DNA from: Xylanibacter ruminicola 23
GTDB lineage: Bacteria; Bacteroidota; Bacteroidia; Bacteroidales; Bacteroidaceae
Direction: 5' to 3'
Assembly: GCF_000025925.1 (NCBI RefSeq)
Contig: NC_014033.1
Location: forward strand, 1,350,001-1,382,000
Length of the DNA stretch: 32,000 nucleotides
Both the position numbers and the translations under genes were made by a program. Each line of letters starts with the position of its first letter. The stretch's first letter is position 1. The notes beneath the pieces are model-generated. The model saw nothing but the letters and a program-made list of their open reading frames with translations. It had not been told where the DNA came from and did no database searches. Shown here piece by piece: positions 1,285-28,037 of the stretch.

Positions 1285-2146
1285 CTAATCAGTAGTCTCG
1301 ATAACGAGTGTATCGCCGTTGTCGAGAGCTGATTTGATGTCGCGGCCACCACTCTGCACCTTACACAGACTGATGTCGTCGCCCTGAACTTCCTCGATCT
1401 TCAGCTTGCCAATCTGCTTCTTTGCCTCCTTACCGGCAACGGTCTTTACGGTATATACACCCATGTGCAGACCCTTGTAAGCACCCTCGGCACTGCCCAG
1501 GTCGATATACACTTCCTTCTGCTTATCCTTCTTATCGCGGGCACCCTCCAGTACGTTAGCGCGCAAAGGCAGCCAGCGGTTGCAGTATATGTTTACATAA
1601 TATGAAAGACGGTCAAGGGCCTTCAACATAGCGCCGTCTTCGGTCTCAATCCACGACAAGTCGGTTTCGGTTACGTTGAACGTAGGACTGGCCAGAATCT
1701 CGTCGGTCTTGGCGCTCTTAAACTGCATGGTAATACCAATCAGCGCCTTGTAATAGGTCTTGGTGCGGGTCTTTTTCTTATCCTTGTCGATATACTCTGT
1801 TTCGGTTTTAGATGTGGTCGATAAGGTAGATACAGTAGCATCTACATAGCGTGCGCCAGGGAGTGCAGCCTCTTGAGCCGACAGCTGTCCGTCGATAGCC
1901 GACATGCGGTGCGACTGCGATATACCCTTCAGGATAGCAGCCCCTAACGGCATCCTGATACTTCGACTGATCCTTCGAAACCTCACCTGTCAACAGTACA
2001 TCCAGTACCTTTTCAAGTGTCTTTGTCTTTTTCACCGTGTAGGTAAGATTGTTCATACCTACCACTACACGGGCATTTCTCTCATCCTGTGCCCAAGTTT
2101 CCAGTCCAAAAACCAGACAGAGGGCCATTATCAGCAATTTTCTCAT
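1285..2146 (-). pseudogene. secreted hypothetical protein split by an apparent 1-nt frameshift (pseudogene or sequencing error)
   Basis: ORF 1808..2146 supplies a signal peptide (MRKLLIMALCLVFGLETWAQ) and about 65 plausible residues. ORF 1285..1986, in the frame offset by 1 nt, carries the remaining about 220 residues but begins only at a GTG. The frames can be joined at the C4 run 1941..1944 (GGGG on the coding strand). Confidence 0.55.
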
Positions 2147-2342: not shown

Positions 2343-2747
2343 ATGAAAAAGATTTTATTAGTAATGATGGCCCTGCTGACTATGACTACAGCAATGGCTC
2401 AGCCATCGGACCGTAAGGCTCCCAAGAAGATGACGCATCAGGAGATGACAACCCAGATGACCAGTAAGCTGAAACTGAACGATGCACAGAAAGCCAAAGT
2501 GGCTGCGCTGAACAAGGAGTATCAGGATATACTGATGCCACCCGAACCACCTAAGAATGCCGATGGCAGCAGACCTGAGCCACCAAAGAATGGCGACAAG
2601 GCTATGCCAAAGAAACCCGACAGCAAGCACAAGGCTAAGCGACAGGAGTACGAGAAGAAGCTGAAGCAAATTCTTACCGACGAGCAGTACAAGAATTACC
2701 AGAAGATGCAGCCGCCACACGGTAAGCGACCAGGAAAGAAAGAATAA
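2343..2747 (+). CDS. periplasmic DUF4890 / Spy-CpxP-like (LTxxQ motif) protein
   Basis: Signal peptide MKKILLVMMALLTMTTAMAQ. Two LxxxQ helices (LKLNDAQKAKV, ILTDEQYKNYQ). Lys/Pro-rich middle with internal repeat PEPPKN x2. Confidence 0.7.
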   Translation: MKKILLVMMALLTMTTAMAQPSDRKAPKKMTHQEMTTQMTSKLKLNDAQKAKVAALNKEYQDILMPPEPPKNADGSRPEPPKNGDKAMPKKPDSKHKAKRQEYEKKLKQILTDEQYKNYQKMQPPHGKRPGKKE

Positions 2748-2756
2748 ACAAATATA

Positions 2757-2790
2757 AAAGCGAGCCTGTTATCAAACAAGCCCGCTTTTA
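2757..2790. terminator. possible bidirectional intrinsic terminator between convergent genes
   Basis: AAAGCGAGC (2757..2765) pairs with GCCCGCTTT (2780..2788) with one mismatch and a 14-nt loop. T-rich tracts follow on both strands. Confidence 0.45.
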
Positions 2791-2793
2791 TAA

Positions 2794-4173
2794 TTATTTT
2801 TCGTATCTTGAAAATACCTGATCTACCAGGGCAGCGAATTCTTGGAAAGCATCGGTGTCGCTGAGCGATGAGAGGCTCTGGGCCAGCTGGCGGTAGTACC
2901 AGGCGTGGCACGCTGGATCTTTCTGATTAAAGCGCTGCCATACCTGCTCGCCCTGCTCATGATAATGAAGGAGCATGGCGCGCATGTTCGACAGTTTATC
3001 GCCAAGCGCCACAATCTTAACATCGCGACTGGCTGCTGCGAGATGATCGATAGCAGCCTGTTTGCGTATCTGCCAGCTGTCGATATGACTCATGCCAGGC
3101 ACCTCGCTGTCGGTCTCGGAATCAACCAGAGCTGCTACACGGTCGCCAAACTCGGTGCGGATATCGGCCACATTTACACCGGCATCCTCAACCACATCGT
3201 GCAGTACGGCTGCTGCCAACAGTTCCTGATCGTCGGTAATACTACCTACGATAGCCATCGCCTCGAGAGGATGAGCAATGTAAGGAATTTTGGTACCCTT
3301 ACGAACCACACCCGAATGGGCTTTGGTAGCAAAACAGATAGCACGATCAACCATGCTTGAATCGATAGTTTGCTTTTTCTTATCGTGAGGCTTCTCGTTG
3401 GTAAGATGCTTCAGCAAATCACTCTGGATGATGCCATTGGTAGCTACCACACTGTTGCCTTGGGTAAAGTCGGCCTCGCCATCGTAATTGGTTACGGTGC
3501 CGCCAGCCTCTTTTACTATCAACGCACCAGCCATGAAATCCCACTGACCGATGTACTGCTCGGCATAACCGTCGTATCGGCCTGCAGCCACATAGCACAA
3601 AGCCATGGCAGCCGAACCGCACATGCGGATGCTACCTACATGGCCGTAAAGCTCATCGATTAAGCGCTTGATAACGGGCTTATAAGCATCGCTGTTATAA
3701 GGCAGTTGCAAGCAGAGCAAAGCATCATTGATTTTCTGTGTACTTACGTGCAGCAGTTGACCGTCCATATAGGCGCCCCCACCCTGCCAGGCGTAAAAAC
3801 ACTCATCGTGACAAACCTCGTAAACCACACCTAACAATACCTCGTGGCCTTGCAACAGCGCAATGCTAACGGCGTAAGGTGCATACTGATGAATAAAATT
3901 GGTTGTACCATCAAGCGGATCTACCACCCATAAAAGCTGCTCCTGATCGTGACCAGCCAATCCTTCCTCGGTAATAAAACCTGCCTCGGGCAGTAACTGG
4001 CGCAATGCGGTTACAATCAGTTGCTCGGAGCCCTTGTCGACATACGACACGTAGTCGTGTGCATGCTTGCGCTCCACGCTCTCTAACGAGAACTTGCTTC
4101 GTTCGTTCCTAATGTAAGCGCCCGCCTGCCTAGCAATCTGGCAGACGGCGCTTGTTAATTGTCTTAACTCCAT
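2794..4173 (-). CDS. fusion protein: inositol monophosphatase/SuhB/CysQ-family phosphatase (N-terminal) + RelA/SpoT-type HD (p)ppGpp-hydrolase-like domain (C-terminal)
   Basis: Uninterrupted 459 aa. IMPase signatures FITEE, WVVDPLDGTTNF and WDFMAG occupy about the first 265 aa. A linker NEKPHDKKKQTIDSS follows, then HD signatures HPLEAMAIV and LHDVVEDAG. Its ATG abuts the stop of the upstream gene (TAAATG). Confidence 0.8.
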   Translation of the reverse strand: MELRQLTSAVCQIARQAGAYIRNERSKFSLESVERKHAHDYVSYVDKGSEQLIVTALRQLLPEAGFITEEGLAGHDQEQLLWVVDPLDGTTNFIHQYAPYAVSIALLQGHEVLLGVVYEVCHDECFYAWQGGGAYMDGQLLHVSTQKINDALLCLQLPYNSDAYKPVIKRLIDELYGHVGSIRMCGSAAMALCYVAAGRYDGYAEQYIGQWDFMAGALIVKEAGGTVTNYDGEADFTQGNSVVATNGIIQSDLLKHLTNEKPHDKKKQTIDSSMVDRAICFATKAHSGVVRKGTKIPYIAHPLEAMAIVGSITDDQELLAAAVLHDVVEDAGVNVADIRTEFGDRVAALVDSETDSEVPGMSHIDSWQIRKQAAIDHLAAASRDVKIVALGDKLSNMRAMLLHYHEQGEQVWQRFNQKDPACHAWYYRQLAQSLSSLSDTDAFQEFAALVDQVFSRYEK

Positions 4174-4719
4174 TTATTTGATTTCCTGGATAATCTTAGC
4201 ACCCTCTTTCAGGGCTTCCATATTCAGAGGAATCAGTCCGTGGTGGCGCTCAGGCAGAGTTTTGTAGAGAGCCTTCTCTACACCCTTGTCGCTTACCACA
4301 GGGGCTACCTTTAAGAGTCCACCCAAAACGATCATGTTGAACACTTTACCGTTTTTCATCTCGGCAGCCTTGTCCATCGCATTAATCTCGTAAACGGTGA
4401 TATCCTTACGGGTTGGCTTGTTGATGATACCAAAGCCATCGTAAATCAGAATGCCACCGGGCTTGATTTTGGGCTCAAACTTCTCGAGTGAGGGCTGATT
4501 GAGTACCACAGCGATGTCGTACTTGCTAAGGATAGGCGAAGAGATGCGCTCGTCGCTAACGATCACTGTAACGTTGGCTGTACCACCACGCTGCTCAGGA
4601 CCGTAAGCAGGCATCCATGTTACCTCCTTATCCTCCATCAGTCCACTATAGGCCAAGATCTTACCCATTGAGAGCACGCCCTGACCTCCGAAACCAGAAA
4701 TAATTATTTCTTTCTTCAT
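4174..4719 (-). CDS. 2-oxoacid:ferredoxin oxidoreductase, gamma subunit
   Basis: 181 aa. N-terminus MKKEIIISGFGGQGVLSMGKIL is typical of POR/KOR/VOR gamma subunits. Sits in an operon with the alpha, beta and delta subunits. Confidence 0.85.
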   Translation of the reverse strand: MKKEIIISGFGGQGVLSMGKILAYSGLMEDKEVTWMPAYGPEQRGGTANVTVIVSDERISSPILSKYDIAVVLNQPSLEKFEPKIKPGGILIYDGFGIINKPTRKDITVYEINAMDKAAEMKNGKVFNMIVLGGLLKVAPVVSDKGVEKALYKTLPERHHGLIPLNMEALKEGAKIIQEIK

Positions 4720-4796
4720 AAAACTTCGTTTTATGCATCATCGGCTGCACCTCAGCAAAGAGTAAACTCTCTGCATTCGGTTTGCACGATAATTCA

Positions 4797-5567
4797 TTAT
4801 TTATTTGTAGTATCTTTTAAGTCACCTTTGGGATAGAAGGGGAACATATTCTCCTTCATCCATTCGTTAGCCTTAGCGGGCGAAAGCTTCCAACCGCTGT
4901 TACAGGTTGAAACAAACTCTACCAGCGATGAACCCTTACCAGCCATCGAAGCCTCGAAAGCCTTACGCAGAGCCTTCTTAGCCTTGTTGATAGAGGCCAC
5001 GCTCTCTACACTCTGACGGGTAACATAGCAGGTACCCTCGAGCTGAGCAGCGATATCGGCCATCTTCAAAGGATAACCGTGAATCTCAGGATCACGACCA
5101 TAAGGACAGGTAGAGGTTTTCTGACCAATCAGTGTGGTTGGAGCCATCTGACCACCCGTCATACCATAAATGGCATTGTTAACGAAGATAATCACGATGT
5201 TCTCGCCACGGTTCAGTGCGTGGATGGTTTCGCAGGTACCGATACAAGCCAGGTCGCCATCGCCCTGATAGGTGAATACCAGGCGATCGGGCCAGGTGCG
5301 CTTGATACCAGTGGCCAGTGCGGGTGCACGACCATGGGCAGCCTCCTGCCAGTCGATATCAATATAATTGTAGGCGAAGACAGCACAACCTACAGGCGAA
5401 ACACCTACGGTCTTGTCTTCCATACCCATCTCTTCGATGACTTCGGCAATGAGCTTATGTACCACGCCGTGGCTACAGCCTGGGCAGTAGTGCATATTGT
5501 TGTCGTTCATCAGCGTCGGCTTCTTGCAGACGATGTTCTCTGGTTGAACTATTTGATTTCTATCCAT
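4797..5567 (-). CDS. 2-oxoacid:ferredoxin oxidoreductase, beta (TPP-binding) subunit
   Basis: 256 aa. Has a CPGCSHG cysteine motif and the TPP motif GDGD...NNAIYGMTGGQ. Confidence 0.88.
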   Translation of the reverse strand: MDRNQIVQPENIVCKKPTLMNDNNMHYCPGCSHGVVHKLIAEVIEEMGMEDKTVGVSPVGCAVFAYNYIDIDWQEAAHGRAPALATGIKRTWPDRLVFTYQGDGDLACIGTCETIHALNRGENIVIIFVNNAIYGMTGGQMAPTTLIGQKTSTCPYGRDPEIHGYPLKMADIAAQLEGTCYVTRQSVESVASINKAKKALRKAFEASMAGKGSSLVEFVSTCNSGWKLSPAKANEWMKENMFPFYPKGDLKDTTNK

Positions 5568-5582
5568 TTTCTATTAATTTTG

Positions 5583-5641
5583 GCAACGGACTACACGACT
5601 AACACGACTTTTCTTAATCCTTAAGTCCTGTTTTCCGTTGC
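5583..5641 (-). other. structured korA-korB-type spacer: 8-bp inverted repeat plus direct repeats
   Basis: GCAACGGA (5583..5590) and TCCGTTGC (5634..5641, overlapping the alpha-subunit stop codon) are perfect inverted repeats. ACACGACT occurs twice (5593..5600, 5602..5609). On the sense (minus) strand the spacer also reads ACTTAAG GATTAAG. Confidence 0.6.
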
Positions 5642-6726
5642 TACATAATTTTCTCTTTTAACGCATCTACAATTTCCTCGGGATCGGGGACGATACCTCC
5701 CAGGCGACCGAACTGCTCTACGGGAACTGCGCCGTTGGCAGCCAGACGAACATCCTGTACCATCTGACCAGCATTGATCTCGGCTACCAGGATACCCTTT
5801 ACCTTCTTTGAAAGCTCGGCAATCTGCTTCTCGGGGAATGGGAACAGTGTGATAGGACGGAACAGACCTACCTTGATACCCTGCTCGCGGGCAATCTCTA
5901 CGCTCTTCTCAGCAATACGGGCAGCACTACCGAATGCTACGATAGCATACTCGGCATCGTCCATCTGCTGCTGCTCAAAGCGTATCTCGTTCTCCTGAAT
6001 CTTGCGATACTTCTCCTGCAGAGCCAGGTTGCGCTGCTCCATGATCTCAGGCTTAAGCTCGAGTGATGTGATGACCACACGCTCGCGGTTCTTTGGCTTA
6101 CCAGTTGAAGCCCAAGGACACTCCTTAATAACCTCCTCGTCGGTACGACGGGGCTTGAATGGGGGCAGAACCACCTTCTCCATCATCTGACCGATAACGC
6201 CATCGCTCAGAATCATGGCTGGGTTACGATACTTAAATGCCAACTCGAAAGCGAGATCTACGAAATCGGCCATCTCCTGAACTGACGATGGAGCCAGAAC
6301 GATAACCTTGTAGTCGCCGTTACCACCACCACGGGTAGCCTGGAAATAGTCGCCCTGCGATGGCTGGATGGTACCCAGACCGGGACCTCCACGCTGAACA
6401 TTGACAAACACACCCGGCACCTCGGCACCAGCCATGTAAGTGATTCCCTCCTGCATCAGTGCGATACCAGGAGACGAAGATGAGGTCATGGCACGCTTAC
6501 CGGCACCGGCAGCACCATAAACCATGTAGATACTGGCCAGCTCGCTCTCGGCCTGAACTACCTGCATACCGGTAGTCTCCCAAGGCTTCAGCTCTGCCAA
6601 TGTCTCGATCACTTCACTCTGCGGAGTAATAGGATAGCCGAAATAGCCGTCGCATCCGCATCGAATAGCAGCGTGGGCAATAGCCTCGTTGCCTTTCATC
6701 AATACAACTTCCTTTTCCTGTGCCAT
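5641..6726 (-). CDS. 2-oxoacid:ferredoxin oxidoreductase, alpha subunit (KorA/VorB-like)
   Basis: 361 aa. N-terminus MKGNEAIAHAAIRCGCDGYFGYPITPQSE is typical of OFOR alpha subunits. Substrate (2-oxoglutarate or branched 2-oxoacids) cannot be judged by eye. Confidence 0.88.
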   Translation of the reverse strand: MAQEKEVVLMKGNEAIAHAAIRCGCDGYFGYPITPQSEVIETLAELKPWETTGMQVVQAESELASIYMVYGAAGAGKRAMTSSSSPGIALMQEGITYMAGAEVPGVFVNVQRGGPGLGTIQPSQGDYFQATRGGGNGDYKVIVLAPSSVQEMADFVDLAFELAFKYRNPAMILSDGVIGQMMEKVVLPPFKPRRTDEEVIKECPWASTGKPKNRERVVITSLELKPEIMEQRNLALQEKYRKIQENEIRFEQQQMDDAEYAIVAFGSAARIAEKSVEIAREQGIKVGLFRPITLFPFPEKQIAELSKKVKGILVAEINAGQMVQDVRLAANGAVPVEQFGRLGGIVPDPEEIVDALKEKIM

Positions 6727-6728
6727 AA

Positions 6729-6959
6729 TTACTCCTCCACTTTTTTACGATACACGGTGATACAACCATCGGGGCAGACGATGCCACACGAAGCACAGCC
6801 CACGCAGGCCTCTTCGTTGACAGCCTCCACGTAGGGGTAGCCGTGCAGATTAACTTTGTTGGCAAGGGCGATAACCTTCTGAGGGCAAGCAACGATGCAG
6901 AGGCTGCATCCCTTACACCTCTCGGTATTCACCTCAATAGCGCCTTTCATTTTTGCCAT
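6729..6959 (-). CDS. 4Fe-4S dicluster ferredoxin, OFOR delta subunit
   Basis: ORF 6729..7121 trimmed to ATG 6959 (76 aa). Two CxxCxxCxxxCP motifs (CKGCSLCIVACP, CVGCASCGIVCP). Its stop lies 2 nt before the alpha-subunit start. Confidence 0.8.
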   Translation of the reverse strand: MAKMKGAIEVNTERCKGCSLCIVACPQKVIALANKVNLHGYPYVEAVNEEACVGCASCGIVCPDGCITVYRKKVEE

Positions 6960-6972
6960 ATTCAGTATTTGT

Positions 6973-7152
6973 TTATGGATTATACATATCTTTACAATAG
7001 AAAGCCATGATGTCGTCGAGCATACGCTTGGCTTCCACAGCGGGACTCTCGGGATCGAGCTCAATAGCCTGGATATAGCTGTTGATAGCCTCGTGCCACT
7101 GACCGCGCTTGCGGGCCTCATTGCCTTGTTCGTAATACTCTTGTGCCGTCAT
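6973..7152 (-). CDS. small tetratricopeptide-repeat-like protein (59 aa)
   Basis: ORF 6973..7161 starts at TTG, so it is trimmed to ATG 7152. Sequence AQEYYEQGNEARKRGQWHEAINSYIQAIELDPES fits a single TPR motif. Sits 13 nt upstream of the delta-subunit gene. Confidence 0.55.
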   Translation of the reverse strand: MTAQEYYEQGNEARKRGQWHEAINSYIQAIELDPESPAVEAKRMLDDIMAFYCKDMYNP

Positions 7153-7187
7153 AATTGTCAATTATCAACTATCAACTGTCAATTATT
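7153..7187. repeat. heptamer array, 5 x 7 bp (AATTGTC AATTATC AACTATC AACTGTC AATTATT)
   Basis: Read directly. It fills the whole folD-to-TPR spacer, overlaps the folD stop codon and abuts ATG 7152. Confidence 0.9.
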
Positions 7188-24442: not shown

Positions 24443-24476
24443 ATCCCGAGACCCTTTGCGGGTTTCGGGATTTTTG
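24443..24476 (+). terminator. intrinsic terminator after susD
   Basis: 12-bp stem ATCCCGAGACCC (24443..24454) / GGGTTTCGGGAT (24460..24471) with one G-U pair and a 5-nt loop, followed by TTTTGTTT. Confidence 0.7.
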
Positions 24477-24478
24477 TT

Positions 24479-24486
24479 TATCTTTG
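24479..24486 (+). promoter_or_regulatory. candidate -7 promoter box (TATCTTTG) for the GH18-GH78 gene
   Basis: Exact TAnnTTTG match 24 nt upstream of ATG 24510. The TTTG at 24455..24458 is at a plausible -33 distance. Confidence 0.45.
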
Positions 24487-24509
24487 CAGCGATAAACCCA
24501 AAAACAAAA

Positions 24510-27500
24510 ATGAAAAGACTACTTTTACTATTTATCGGACTGATGGCCTTCTGGCATGCTGATGCCGGAAAGCAAGTAATGAATCGTGTGGTGGTGGCTT
24601 ACGTCACCGCAGGTACTAACGACGTTCCAGACCCTACGTTGATGACCCACATCAACTATGCATTCGGAACAGTCAACAAAACATTTAATGGTGTAGATAT
24701 CCAGAAGCCAGAACGCCTACGGGTGATTGCTGGTTTGAAACAGCAGAACCCCGACTTAAAAGTGCTGCTGTCGATTGGTGGATGGACAGCAGGACGATTC
24801 AGCGAAATGGCTGCCACCAAACAGAACCGCGCTGCCTTTGCCAAGGACTGCAAACGCATTGTAGATGAGTTCGGACTGGATGGTATCGATATCGACTGGG
24901 AATACCCGTCATCAAGCGAGGCTGGTATCTCGTCATCACCCCACGATATCGATAACTTTACACTGCTGATGAAGGAACTGCGCCGTGTGTTAGGAAAACA
25001 GAAACTGCTTACCATCGCCACCATCTGCACCGCAAAGTATATCGACTTTAAGAAATGTCTGCCTTATCTCGACTTGGTGAATGTGATGTCGTATGATATG
25101 AGCGATCCCAATAAGGCACACCATGCTGCCCTCTACCCCTCGCCTATCTCAGGTTACTGCACCGGCTCTGAAGCTGTCGAGGCACACCTGAAGGCTGGTG
25201 TTCCCAAGGAGAAGCTGGTGATGGGAATGCCTTTCTACCAAAAAGGCAGAAGACAGGACGCTGGTGTTGACGAATATCTGCGTACGGGTATCCTGCCCGT
25301 TGGCTACACACGTCAGTGGAGCGATGTGGCACAAGCCGATTATATTGCCAACGAAAAGGGCGAGTTTGTATGGGCTTACGAAACCACACGTTCGTTAGGT
25401 GCCATCTGTCAGTATATCCTGGATAACAACCTGTGTGGCGGTATGTACTGGGAATACTCGAACGACAGAACGGGTGAGTTCAGTTCGCTGCTGAGTAAAA
25501 TGCTATTAGAGCAGTCCACCACTGTAGGCCATAAAACCGCAGCCCTTAACACATCAGCCTGGCAGAATACCGAATGGATTTCGGTTGTGAATGCCCCTAT
25601 AGTAACAGGCCGTGCCGACCAGGTGATTCGTGCTGCAGATGGCGCTAACTGGTTTGTATCTACCATCAAAAACGAAAAGCCCGTAACCCAAGCTAAATGG
25701 ATGACAACGGGATTAGGTGTGTTTGAACTTTACCTGAACGGACAACCTGTAGGCGACGAAATCCTGAAGCCCGGATTTACACACTACGCCAAAACCAAGC
25801 GTTCGTTTACTTACGATATCACCGAGGCTTTCCAGAAGCAGACTGGTAACGAGAATGTACTCTCGGCTCAGGTCACACCGGGCTGGTGGGCTGATAAGAT
25901 TATCACTCCAGGCGATCACGAAGGTATGATTGGTAAGAAGTGTGCCTTCCGTGGTGTATTGGAACTGACATTTGCCGATGGCACCAAACAGTACTACGGC
26001 ACCAACTGCAAGGATTGGAAAGCAGGTATTGCAGGTCAGGTAAAGCACGCCGGTATATTTGATGGCGAGGCTTTTGATGCCCGCGAACTGCCTGGATTTG
26101 CTACCCCTGAAAAACTCTCAACTCCCGAGGTAAATAGCGAGTTTACTGGCGAGATTGTACCATCCGATGGTGCTGAGGTTTATCTGCGTCGCGACTTGGC
26201 ATTACGCCCCGCCATGGCCTATATCTGGCAAGGTGTAACCGGCGAGAAGCAAGCCGCCGACAAGAAGGATATCGAATATGGTAAGGTTACCATCAAACGC
26301 AACTATGCCCTGGGCGAAACCATCACTCTGAATCCTGGCGAAACGCTGGTTGTAGATTTCGGACAGAATACATCAGGTGTACCATGCTTCAGCTTTAAAG
26401 CCAACGAAGGTACTACCCTGACTTGTCTGCCAGCAGAAATCCTGAACGATGGCAACGGTGCCGAGCGCCGTGGCATGGACGGACCAGAAGGTAGCGTGCA
26501 TCGTCGCAACCTGCGTATCCAGAACACCGGTATCCGCATCGATTACACCTTTGCCAACAACCCCAGCTTTGTAAGCTACTATCCCCACTGCACCTTCTTT
26601 GGCTACCGTTACATCTCGGTAACCGCTACCGATAAGGTAGAGATTCAACGCGTTGAATCACTGCCTGTAACCAGCATAGCCAAAGGTCTGGAAATAGGTA
26701 AAATCACCACAGGTAACGACCTGATTAACAAGCTGATTTCGAACACCGTTTGGGGCCAGCGCTCTAACTATCTCTCGGTTCCTACCGACTGTCCGCAGCG
26801 CGATGAGCGATTAGGTTGGATGGCTGATACTCAAGTGTTTACCGAAGCCGGTTCGTTCTTTGCTAATACCGACGGATTCTTCCATAAATGGACCCGCGAT
26901 GTACGCGACTCACAGAGTGCTACAGGTGGATTCCCAGGCGTATCGCCTATTGCCCAGTATGGTAATGAGATGATGCGTTTGGGTTGGGCCGATGCCGGTG
27001 TGATTGTGCCATGGACAGTATGGAAGCAGTTTGGCGATAAAGCCATCGTAGATGAGAACTGGGAAGCGATGGAACGCTTCATGAATCACATCAACGAGGT
27101 GAAATACAACCACGAGGCACTCGTAAAAGAGAATGGCAACTACCAATGGGCCGACTGGCTGAGCTGCGAGGCTTTGGAGACTTGTATTAACCTCGCTTTC
27201 GACGAGAACTGGAAGCCACGTCCCGATGCCATTGCCTACTGGAATTACCTGAGTGCCTGCTACTGGCAGATTGATGCCGAGATGATGCGTGACATGGCAC
27301 TGGCAACAGGTCGCGATGCCTCGAAATACCAGCAGATGGCAGAGGCTGCCCAGACCTATCTGAAGCAGCAGTTCCTGAATCAGAATGGTACCTTTAAGAC
27401 TGCCGTACTGAACACCATGCAAACCCCTGCCCTGTTTGCCTTGAAGAACCGTCTGGTAGATGGTGCTGCCAAGGAGCGTATGATTCAGCGCCTGCGCCAG

Positions 27501-28037
27501 AATTTTGAGGAACATGGCAACTGCTTGCAGACCGGTTTCCTAGGCACCAGTATCCTGATGGCTACACTCACCGAAAACGGCTTGGTAGATATTGCTTACG
27601 AGCTGCTTTTCCAGCGTAAGAACCCCAGTTGGATTTACTCGATTGACAACGGTGCCACCACCATCTGGGAGCGTTGGAACAGCTACCGTCGCGATAATGG
27701 CTTAGGACCTAACGGCATGAACAGTTTTAACCACTATGCCTACGGTGCCGTATGCGAGTGGATTTGGGAGACTGCAGCCGGTATTGCCACCGACACCCAG
27801 GTGCCAGGCTTTAAGCAGATTATCATGAAACCCGTACCCGACAAGCGCTTAGGTTTTGTGAAGGCCGAATACCAGTCGGCAGCCGGTTTGATTAAGAGCG
27901 AATGGAAATACGAAGGCGACCTGTGGTTGTGGAACTTCACCGTTCCCGAAGGAGCCACCGCCATCGTTACCCTACCCGGCGAGACAACCCCGAAGACATA
28001 TCCAAGTGGCACTTACCACTTACAAAAGAAACTCTAA
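24510..28037 (+). CDS. two-catalytic-domain glycosidase: N-terminal GH18 (chitinase/endo-beta-N-acetylglucosaminidase-like) fused to a C-terminal GH78 (alpha-L-rhamnosidase family)
   Basis: ORF 24456..28037 starts at a TTG inside the terminator hairpin, so it is trimmed to ATG 24510 (1175 aa). Signal peptide MKRLLLLFIGLMAFWHADA. GH18 motifs LSIGGW, DGIDIDWEYP, MSYD and GGMYWEYSND. GH78 motifs GLGVFELYLNGQPVGDEILKPGFTHY and VPTDCPQRDERLGWMADTQVF. Confidence 0.85.
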   Translation: MKRLLLLFIGLMAFWHADAGKQVMNRVVVAYVTAGTNDVPDPTLMTHINYAFGTVNKTFNGVDIQKPERLRVIAGLKQQNPDLKVLLSIGGWTAGRFSEMAATKQNRAAFAKDCKRIVDEFGLDGIDIDWEYPSSSEAGISSSPHDIDNFTLLMKELRRVLGKQKLLTIATICTAKYIDFKKCLPYLDLVNVMSYDMSDPNKAHHAALYPSPISGYCTGSEAVEAHLKAGVPKEKLVMGMPFYQKGRRQDAGVDEYLRTGILPVGYTRQWSDVAQADYIANEKGEFVWAYETTRSLGAICQYILDNNLCGGMYWEYSNDRTGEFSSLLSKMLLEQSTTVGHKTAALNTSAWQNTEWISVVNAPIVTGRADQVIRAADGANWFVSTIKNEKPVTQAKWMTTGLGVFELYLNGQPVGDEILKPGFTHYAKTKRSFTYDITEAFQKQTGNENVLSAQVTPGWWADKIITPGDHEGMIGKKCAFRGVLELTFADGTKQYYGTNCKDWKAGIAGQVKHAGIFDGEAFDARELPGFATPEKLSTPEVNSEFTGEIVPSDGAEVYLRRDLALRPAMAYIWQGVTGEKQAADKKDIEYGKVTIKRNYALGETITLNPGETLVVDFGQNTSGVPCFSFKANEGTTLTCLPAEILNDGNGAERRGMDGPEGSVHRRNLRIQNTGIRIDYTFANNPSFVSYYPHCTFFGYRYISVTATDKVEIQRVESLPVTSIAKGLEIGKITTGNDLINKLISNTVWGQRSNYLSVPTDCPQRDERLGWMADTQVFTEAGSFFANTDGFFHKWTRDVRDSQSATGGFPGVSPIAQYGNEMMRLGWADAGVIVPWTVWKQFGDKAIVDENWEAMERFMNHINEVKYNHEALVKENGNYQWADWLSCEALETCINLAFDENWKPRPDAIAYWNYLSACYWQIDAEMMRDMALATGRDASKYQQMAEAAQTYLKQQFLNQNGTFKTAVLNTMQTPALFALKNRLVDGAAKERMIQRLRQNFEEHGNCLQTGFLGTSILMATLTENGLVDIAYELLFQRKNPSWIYSIDNGATTIWERWNSYRRDNGLGPNGMNSFNHYAYGAVCEWIWETAAGIATDTQVPGFKQIIMKPVPDKRLGFVKAEYQSAAGLIKSEWKYEGDLWLWNFTVPEGATAIVTLPGETTPKTYPSGTYHLQKKL

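Follow-up and report, generated by a model that had tools for sequence, protein, structure and literature searches.

The window analyzed here, a 32,000-nucleotide stretch of the Xylanibacter ruminicola 23 genome (NC_014033.1, positions 1,350,001 to 1,382,000), carries on its minus strand, at 2794..4173, a single unbroken open reading frame (ORF) of 459 codons plus stop that begins with ATG and joins an inositol monophosphatase (IMPase)-family phosphatase to a small alarmone hydrolase (SAH) module of the RelH type. We favor, with a probability of roughly 60%, the reading that its product is an enzyme with two uncoupled functions, those of a SuhB/ImpA-like phosphatase and a RelH-type (pp)pGpp hydrolase, on one polypeptide encoded by the last gene of the operon for a four-subunit 2-oxoacid:ferredoxin oxidoreductase (OFOR); this reading is built on comparison of sequences and gene order. 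Both domain families are well known; their combination appears to be new, without amounting to a new kind of system. An earlier note, made from the letters of the window alone, had described an uninterrupted 459-codon ORF in which gene fusion had joined an IMPase-family phosphatase to a RelA/SpoT-type HD hydrolase, and both points were borne out.

The C-terminal half is a RelH-type hydrolase module

A Pfam scan matched the C-terminal half to HD_4 (PF13328) over residues 278-406 with 69.7 bits against a cut-off of 27.2 and the N-terminal half to Inositol_P (PF00459) over residues 3-258 with 210.5 bits against a cut-off of 27, placing both domains far above the Pfam gathering thresholds. Among proteins of solved structure, those nearest to the HD half were C. 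glutamicum RelH (7QOC, E 7.8e-24), L. levettii RelH (7QOE) and Lmo0812 (4YF1); RelH is an SAH whose structures have been solved, and the identities of the Protein Data Bank entries are those given in PMC9293644. Against 7QOC/7QOD, 7QOE and 4YF1 the module was collinear over approximately 175 residues (E 8e-24 to 1e-22). The segments VRKGTKIPYIAHP, LHDVVED and GDKLSNMR lined up with motifs that are catalytic in RelH (7qoc/7qoe), Lmo0812 and T. thermophilus Rel, with RKG..PYIAHP of the HD half corresponding to the RelH/Rel catalytic motif. All hydrolase residues were present in this alignment, and the three motifs shared with RelH-type SAHs (R-x-G..PY-x-HP, LHDxxED and DKLxN) were conserved in all fused orthologues. 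The earlier assignment of residues ~280-459 to an HD domain with a (p)ppGpp-hydrolase signature therefore stands, as does the remark that its size is that of stand-alone SAHs: the HD part measures about 195 amino acids, and stand-alone Prevotella HD_4 relatives, collinear with it and 65-78% identical, measure 192-198 amino acids.

The long RelA/SpoT homologues (RSH; Rel/SpoT) and Mesh1 have this HD hydrolase fold and its catalytic residues as well. Unlike long RSH enzymes, the fusion lacks synthetase, TGS and ACT domains, as the Pfam scan of the fused protein gave no match to PF04607, TGS or ACT, and its similarity to Rel (E 1e-14) and Mesh1 (E 1e-9 to 1e-11) is far weaker than that to RelH-type SAHs. 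With respect to the SAH class, the module is hydrolase only; it is no small stand-alone protein, being the C-terminal half of a 459-residue fusion, and unlike RelH-type SAHs it sits behind an IMPase domain in the OFOR operon. From its sequence, the HD half is thus classified as an SAH-type module but not as a classical stand-alone SAH. By homology to the characterized RelH and XccSAH (PMC5954133; PMC9765508), it is predicted to act as a Mn2+-dependent (pp)pGpp 3'-pyrophosphohydrolase that would yield GTP, GDP or GMP and PPi. PMC9765508 lists pppGpp, ppGpp, pGpp and pppApp, along with NADPH, as molecules cleaved by characterized SAHs.

An alarmone role of this HD family is supported by the stand-alone relative P0124, since its gene lies 12 bp downstream of a gene for a 360-residue RelA_SpoT synthetase-domain protein, i.e., a small alarmone synthetase (SAS). 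When this SAS neighbor was used as a query, a large family was recovered, with no member on the window's contig among the 120 matches listed. The gene of another stand-alone relative, P0127, follows one for a Big_7 protein. SAS-SAH adjacency was rejected as a general rule, for in loci L094 and L097 the SAS gene comes after genes for STAS and SpoIIE, without an SAH gene at its side. As a separate observation, a RelA_SpoT synthetase-domain protein of ~356 amino acids is conserved in Prevotellaceae (L094:714-4068, L097:1-4080 and L091:3907-5588); its gene usually comes after genes for a STAS anti-sigma antagonist and a dCache/HAMP/SpoIIE phosphatase, a context that suggests an alarmone synthetase under partner-switching control. 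In L091 and L092, the synthetase gene is instead followed, 12 bp on, by a stand-alone SAH gene.

The N-terminal half is a SuhB/ImpA-like phosphatase

The Inositol_P match of the N-terminal half spanned profile positions 2-267 of 271. Like E. coli SuhB (2QFL, 6IB7 and 6TQN), with which it aligned over the full length (residues 7-259 against residues 9-263 of 6ib7, E 5.6e-45), it has the E-E, DPxDGTxNF and WDxxAG motifs. Its segments FITEE, WVVDPLDGTTNF and WDFMAG aligned with the metal-binding motifs of SuhB; the metal/phosphate motifs FITEE, VVDPLDGTTNF and WDFMAG, which match ITEE, VIDPLDGTTNF and WDFAAG of SuhB, were kept in all fused orthologues. Stand-alone Prevotella IMPases of ~262 amino acids are orthologues of this half, with 70-85% identity. 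Unlike SuhB, it scored 167.9 bits with the NCBIfam SuhB/inositol-1-monophosphatase equivalog NF008027 (cut-off 332) and carries IRMCGSAAMAL in motif 5, without the RR and D-L of the SuhB-typical RR-x-GSAAL-D-L (PMC5516325), in addition to the SAH module at its C terminus. The remaining NCBIfam equivalog cut-offs were missed as well, with 136.7 bits for TIGR02067 (HisN, cut-off 275), 111 bits for TIGR01331 (CysQ, cut-off 228.8) and 77 bits for NF008182 (CysQ test, cut-off 379). A weak match to the NCBIfam model of the bifunctional NADP phosphatase/NAD kinase was also recorded.

CysQ enzymes are marked by a Ser before E-E in motif 2 and a Pro that replaces Gly in motif 6, and the HisN IMPase-like phosphatases by the absence of Gly at motif-6 position 219 (PMC5516325). 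The IMPase half has T-E-E in motif 2 and Gly in motif 6 (WDFMAG), and because of this Gly it belongs to neither HisN nor CysQ. The equivalog scores together with both motifs argue against a CysQ 3'(2'),5'-bisphosphate nucleotidase, and the TIGR02067 score together with the motif-6 Gly against a HisN histidinol-phosphate phosphatase. Given the equivalog score and motif 5, the half cannot count as a proven SuhB orthologue either. Of the IMPase/SuhB/CysQ signatures attributed at first to residues ~1-265, the metal-binding motifs shared with SuhB are present and those of CysQ are absent, and the half is, on these sequence features, best called a SuhB/ImpA-like member of the Inositol monophosphatase superfamily.

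The fusion is genuine and its joint is short

The fused protein was found intact in five GTDB species representatives, namely X. ruminicola D31d, whose locus encodes a protein 99% identical to that of the window, X. ruminicola Ga6B6, Prevotella sp. MA2016 and the metagenome-assembled genomes RUG13469 and SIG140, the last four with a full-length ORF at 92-98% identity. The fusion also occurs, at 79-98% identity, in four clusters of rumen metagenome sequences built at 90% identity (P0001-P0004); the main metagenomic cluster holds 405 member sequences of 458-459 amino acids. The junction was free of gaps in 10 of the 10 fused sequences examined, many synonymous differences among them notwithstanding, and the same open frame, with neither stop nor frameshift at the junction, was seen in independent assemblies. 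By pairwise Nei-Gojobori analysis, the ratio of nonsynonymous to synonymous substitution rates (dN/dS) ranged from 0.04 to 0.11 in the IMPase half and from 0.045 to 0.15 in the HD half, with dS values of 0.3-1.8; the 22-codon junction alone has too few sites for dN/dS (dS saturated or undefined), and its value was not used. These ratios indicate strong purifying selection on both halves, and this comparison excludes a sequencing artefact or a decaying domain.

Alignment with unfused relatives on both sides located the joint. Unfused IMPases terminate at ..HLRSI or ..AHIAL followed by the stop codon, adjoining residue 257 of the fusion, and stand-alone SAHs start M-KKKKTIDTQ.., aligned to D264-KKKQTIDSS.. 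of the fusion. The only new sequence is therefore the ~7 residues from T258 to D264, with the D264 codon now standing where the ancestral SAH had its start codon. What had been taken for a Lys-rich linker between the domains is the native N terminus of the captured hydrolase, because the starts of stand-alone SAHs align to D264-KKKQTID; the new linker is T258-D264. The internal Met that had been thought to mark the start of a separate HD gene fared no better, as M274 (3354-3352) lies 10 codons downstream of the old SAH start position D264, where stand-alone relatives begin. Codon 274 is ATG only in the window and D31d, and CTG or CTC (Leu) in all other fused orthologues. From these codons, M274 is read as a derived, strain-specific substitution (CTG to ATG) and not as a relic start, and the HD half is predicted not to be separately translatable in most of the clade, in which codon 274 is not ATG.

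Public annotation reflects this Met. Three NCBI calls of 186 amino acids named "HD domain-containing protein" (WP_175456329.1, WP_338063379.1 and WP_369793402.1) start at M274 and belong to X. ruminicola strains and Prevotella sp. RM4; a 459-residue product is on public record for the same contigs, and public collections include the exact sequence of the window's protein as such a product. In the 186-residue calls the fusion is hidden, and the IMPase half is presumably left without a protein record. A different naming problem was seen in JGI/IMG, where HD_4 proteins of ~195 amino acids that lack any IMPase domain are named "myo-inositol-1(or 4)-monophosphatase" (P0131, P0148, P0156, P0181, P0199 and P0238), with the same misnaming among members of a second sequence cluster; it looks like a propagated annotation error, and its source is probably transfer from the fused protein.

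An AlphaFold2 model of the fused protein, made from a shallow alignment (52 sequences of at least 57% identity), had a mean predicted local distance difference test score (pLDDT) of 77 and a predicted template modeling score (pTM) of 0.53. The HD half was confidently folded, parts of the IMPase half scored poorly, and residues 260-270 had a pLDDT below 50. No interdomain interface was predicted in this model, with its pTM of 0.53 and shallow alignment, and because of that pTM and the disordered tether none can be claimed; as modeled, the protein consists of two independent domains on a flexible tether. RelH proteins are homodimers held by their N-terminal helices (PMC9293644). Since the RelH N terminus is here tethered to another, itself dimeric, fold, the quaternary structure of the fusion may differ from that of RelH.

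The fused gene closes the OFOR operon

The features of the locus are collected in Table 1. The korG stop codon TAA (4176-4174) abuts the ATG of the fused gene (4173-4171) with 0 nt between them, an exact match to the TAAATG noticed earlier. L001 and L008-L012 share the 0-nt spacing; in L099 and L102 the two genes are 5 nt apart. In the unfused sister locus L002, korG is separated from the IMPase gene by 80 bp that include a terminator-like hairpin. Because the ATG abuts the korG stop and a terminator-like hairpin follows the ORF, we take the fused ORF to be the last cistron of the OFOR operon. By this arrangement the gene is positioned for co-transcription with the operon and is probably translationally coupled to it, a placement that fits the co-expression proposed in the earlier note. 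A sigma-70 promoter scan gave matches not above those in shuffled sequence, and such a scan is uninformative for Bacteroidota.

Table 1. Features of the fused gene and the adjoining OFOR operon in the window
Feature	Coordinates	Strand	Extent or character	Basis
Whole fused ORF (IMPase-SAH fusion protein)	2794..4173	-	459 codons plus stop	ORF scan and Pfam
IMPase-family domain (SuhB/ImpA-like)	3400..4173	-	residues 1-258	Pfam PF00459, E 4.4e-62
Fusion joint (TNEKPHD)	3382..3402	-	residues T258-D264	alignment with unfused IMPases and stand-alone SAHs
SAH (RelH-type HD) module	2794..3381	-	residues K265-K459 plus stop	Pfam HD_4, E 3.1e-19
Internal ATG (M274)	3352..3354	-		codon comparison among fused orthologues
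TAAATG, korG stop/fused-gene start	4171..4176	-		sequence
Terminator-like hairpin	2753..2792	-	directly after ORF stop	18-pair stem, then T-run
OFOR gamma subunit korG	4174-4719	-		Pfam POR
OFOR beta subunit	4797-5567	-		Pfam TPP_enzyme_C
OFOR alpha subunit	5641-6726	-		Pfam POR_N and PFOR_II
OFOR delta subunit	6729-6944	-		Pfam Fer4
Four-subunit 2-oxoacid:ferredoxin oxidoreductase operon	4174..6944	-	upstream of fused gene	Pfam

Spacers within the operon also vary. The korB-korG spacer measures 77 nt in the window (4720-4796, minus strand), and L002 has a 4-nt overlap there. The korG-IMPase spacer of L002 (L002:4921-5000) contains the hairpin CACAATTATCC..GGATAATTGT, followed by a T-run, that has no counterpart in the window; no resemblance was seen between the 77-nt spacer of the window and the 80-bp spacer of L002. 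On the other side of the fused gene, the window holds a convergent gene at 2343-2747 (plus strand) for a 134-residue DUF4890 protein, Lys/Pro-rich and with a signal-peptide-like N terminus, and at 1285-1986 (minus strand), just downstream of the fused gene, a 233-residue ORF with no Pfam match.

The HD module comes and goes among close relatives

A tblastn survey of 80 genome loci, in which HD-like sequence was sought within 6 kb of the IMPase gene, found such sequence in only 5 loci, all 5 of them fused; an HD gene beside the IMPase gene was seen in 0 of the 75 unfused loci. An origin by merger of adjacent genes was rejected because no unfused locus surveyed has an HD neighbor. Among the loci surveyed, no IMPase-SAH gene neighborhood was seen outside the fusion. 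The IMPase gene adjoins the OFOR operon in the fusion clade and its immediate relatives only (L002-L004 and L099-L101), with a different IMPase-OFOR arrangement in L085 and L093; judged by gene order, its link with the operon does not extend beyond this small clade.

The most informative comparison was that of L102, which encodes the fused P0003, with L099, which encodes the unfused P0005. The two loci are fully syntenic, in the order KorG, 5-bp spacer, IMPase with or without HD, a convergent alpha/beta-hydrolase, a peptidyl-prolyl isomerase (PPIase) and CobT/U/S, and their nucleotide difference is one clean block of ~603-605 bp that holds only the HD module. The block starts past ..LLAHI, ends at the fused stop codon and has a 2-nt microhomology at its edges. 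In L002, a second unfused lineage, the breakpoint lies elsewhere, and neither the hydrolase gene nor that for the PPIase is present. Homology among the window, L001 and L102 ends exactly at the stop codon of the fused gene, beyond which the downstream flanks are unrelated. From these alignments, the HD module is best described as a presence/absence polymorphism, and because it is absent from very close syntenic relatives, the IMPase is considered independent of it. Outgroup copies of the convergent hydrolase, sought to polarize the L099/L102 indel through its C terminus, were not present among the loci.

Phylogenies were computed by neighbor joining with 100 bootstraps. In the tree of the IMPase half, fused P0003 and unfused P0005 grouped together in 99/100 bootstraps, monophyly of all fused sequences was recovered in 0/100 and the window clade in 97/100. 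In the tree of the HD half, the window clade was recovered in 99/100 and monophyly of all fused sequences in 53/100. In a tree of 127 sequences, the sole "unfused" member to fall within the fused HD group was P0122, a fragment whose sequence is identical to that of P0003. A single fusion event is inferred because the junction is identical in all fused proteins. Altogether, the sequence distribution indicates that the fusion is young and limited to a small group of rumen Xylanibacter/Prevotella species.

Comparable architectures and the scope of the searches

An exhaustive HMMER search with the full protein against 1.84 billion representatives revealed no other IMPase plus HD_4 protein among the 150 best matches, a negative weakened by the 50% clustering of the representatives, under which the query's own family was subsumed under a 263-residue IMPase representative (P0269), and by the fact that fusions with less than ~30% identity per half would score under the listed range. 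Since the clustering hides even the family of the query, absence of the fusion elsewhere is weakly supported. A literature search found nothing that names both "small alarmone hydrolase" and "inositol monophosphatase," and nothing relevant on the IMPase-SAH architecture, which thus appears to be uncharacterized, in agreement with the earlier note.

Each domain has other partners. The SAH-type HD_4 module was found fused to an ADP-ribosylglycohydrolase (P0376), an APH-type kinase (P0279), an AraC-HTH domain (P0274), AIG2/GGACT (P0321), and SpoIIE plus a tyrosine phosphatase (P0313). These modules are 42-60% identical to that of the fusion; unlike it, none of the five has an IMPase partner, and to our knowledge none is characterized. 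Since it occurs fused to several other domains, the HD_4 module is considered a frequent fusion partner. The APH-type kinase plus HD_4 arrangement recurs in several proteins of ~560 amino acids. The IMPase domain was found fused to HutD (P0366), AraC-HTH (P0278) and NUDIX (P0040). The last of these (L093:290-1555; 421 amino acids, 22 member sequences) comprises an orthologous IMPase, 85% identical, joined to NUDIX in a sister Prevotella lineage, with its gene directly upstream of the OFOR delta (Fer4) gene; here, too, and independently, this IMPase has become fused to a fold that hydrolyzes nucleotide diphosphates.

An uncoupled bifunctional enzyme as the favored explanation

In the explanation that we favor, the N-terminal half would be the ordinary SuhB/ImpA-like IMPase-family phosphomonoesterase of the lineage, to the end of which a complete RelH-type SAH, taken from another place in a Prevotella genome, became attached in frame from its second codon onward, leaving a flexible joint of ~7 residues. 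The result, in the X. ruminicola species group, would be a two-domain product of ~51 kDa in which each half retains its ancestral activity, the IMPase half as a Mg-dependent phosphomonoesterase and the HD half as a Mn-dependent 3'-pyrophosphohydrolase on (pp)pGpp and possibly related nucleotides, with no obligatory hand-over of substrate between them. The fusion would have arisen once and later been lost, or swapped as an allele, in close relatives; it would be held by selection where present and yet be dispensable. Since the gene is the last OFOR cistron and its start abuts the korG stop, the dosage of the alarmone hydrolase would be tied to expression of the IMPase and the OFOR operon. The main novelty of the fusion is most likely regulatory, i.e., the coupling of alarmone-hydrolase dosage to OFOR transcription through the 0-nt stop/start junction.

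Several points weigh against this explanation. The substrate assignment of the IMPase half is affected by its failure to reach any NCBIfam equivalog cut-off and by its atypical motif 5. Monophyly of all fused HD sequences has a support of no more than 53/100, and the L099/L102 indel may represent a loss or may equally represent the gain of an allele. Strong purifying selection over dS values above 1 could reflect a real functional coupling of the two halves.

Such coupling is the substance of an unlikely alternative, in which both domains cooperate on 2'/3'-phosphorylated nucleotides: the HD half would attack (pp)pGpp, pppApp or NADPH and the IMPase half would remove the 2'/3'-monophosphate (of pGp- or ppGp-like by-products, pAp or NADP(H)), making the fusion a single detoxification or cofactor-balancing unit. 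Fukuda et al. in 2007 (cited in PMC4518329) reportedly described NADP(H) phosphatase activity in an archaeal IMPase and in bacterial CysQ, which counts in favor of this idea, as do the weak match of the IMPase half to the NADP phosphatase/NAD kinase model, the IMPase-NUDIX fusion P0040 and the selection on both halves. Hydrolysis of NADPH by SAHs and Mesh1 (PMC9765508) points the same way. The IMPase half, however, has neither the motif-2 Ser nor the motif-6 residue of CysQ, near-identical syntenic loci lack the HD module, no neighborhood of separate IMPase and SAH genes was seen, and the structural model predicts no interface. Moreover, RSH hydrolases, as is generally known, take off the 3'-diphosphate (pyrophosphate) in one step, so that no 3'-monophosphate intermediate would be left for a second enzyme. 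The sequential degradation of 3'-phosphorylated nucleotides suggested in the earlier note is accordingly not upheld, for lack of CysQ signatures and in view of the close syntenic relatives without HD. We keep the shared 2'/3'-phospho-nucleotide theme as a lead, because SAHs and IMPase-family enzymes have both been recorded on NADP(H).

It is also doubtful that the fusion serves as a Rosetta-stone signal that links an IMPase-family protein to alarmone or phospho-nucleotide turnover in Bacteroidota. Two versions of such a link are possible: a dual phosphatase acting on (pp)pGpp, pGp and NADP(H), which would tune alarmone and NADP(H) pools with OFOR expression, or a docking protein whose SuhB-like module brings a ppGpp hydrolase to the transcription/ribosome-biogenesis machinery. 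In that case, P0040 would hint at the link independently for a second time.

Taken as an explanation of its own, targeting, in which the SuhB-like half docks the alarmone hydrolase at RNA polymerase or the ribosome-biogenesis machinery for local clearing of (p)ppGpp, seems very improbable. E. coli SuhB is a Nus factor of the rRNA antitermination complex, and the solved structures nearest to the N-terminal half are those of E. coli-type SuhB proteins, among them chains 6tqn and 8wdq, named "Nus factor SuhB"; the flexible tether of the model would suit a dock-plus-enzyme layout. The association of SuhB with Nus factors in E. coli (PMC4807359) counts for targeting too. Set against this, there is no evidence for Bacteroidota IMPases as Nus factors, the SuhB-typical motif-5 residues (RR and D-L) are not conserved, the IMPase catalytic residues are fully kept, as for an enzyme, and close relatives manage without the HD module. 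Finally, the idea of an artefact or of two separate products, arising from a stop or frameshift that was missed or from translation of the HD half from the internal ATG, to which the 186-residue records and the in-frame ATG of the window and D31d lend some color, can be given hardly any credence, since each of 10 independent fused sequences has an open frame without gaps, codon 274 encodes Leu in most orthologues, the ancestral SAH start is D264, a start at M274 would lose the conserved N-terminal KKKxTID segment, and a 459-residue product is recorded for the same contig as the 186-residue call.

Implications

If the halves are uncoupled, the fusion is a clean natural case of a signaling-nucleotide hydrolase captured by a housekeeping operon and then lost, with capture, hard-wiring and loss all taking place within a few closely related rumen species. 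If they are coupled, it points to an unrecognized role of the IMPase family in alarmone or NADP(H) metabolism of Bacteroidota, in which the enzymology of the stringent response is poorly known. Strains like L102 and L099 offer a natural contrast of fused and unfused forms that requires no engineering. There is also a consequence for annotation, as HD proteins are misnamed "myo-inositol monophosphatase" (JGI) and the fusion is split into 186-residue NCBI calls.

Other observations in the window

At 24456-28037 (plus strand), the window contains a 1193-residue ORF with an N-terminal glycoside hydrolase (GH) domain of family GH18, endo-beta-N-acetylglucosaminidase-like, and a complete GH78 alpha-L-rhamnosidase. 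It lies within an N-glycan-type polysaccharide utilization locus at 11410-31677 that also includes two GH20, GH125, GH92, SusC/SusD and GH2. At 6973-7161 (minus strand), as at L005:9654-9833, a protein of 59-62 amino acids with a single tetratricopeptide repeat is encoded directly after folD, an arrangement kept in distant Prevotella loci too.

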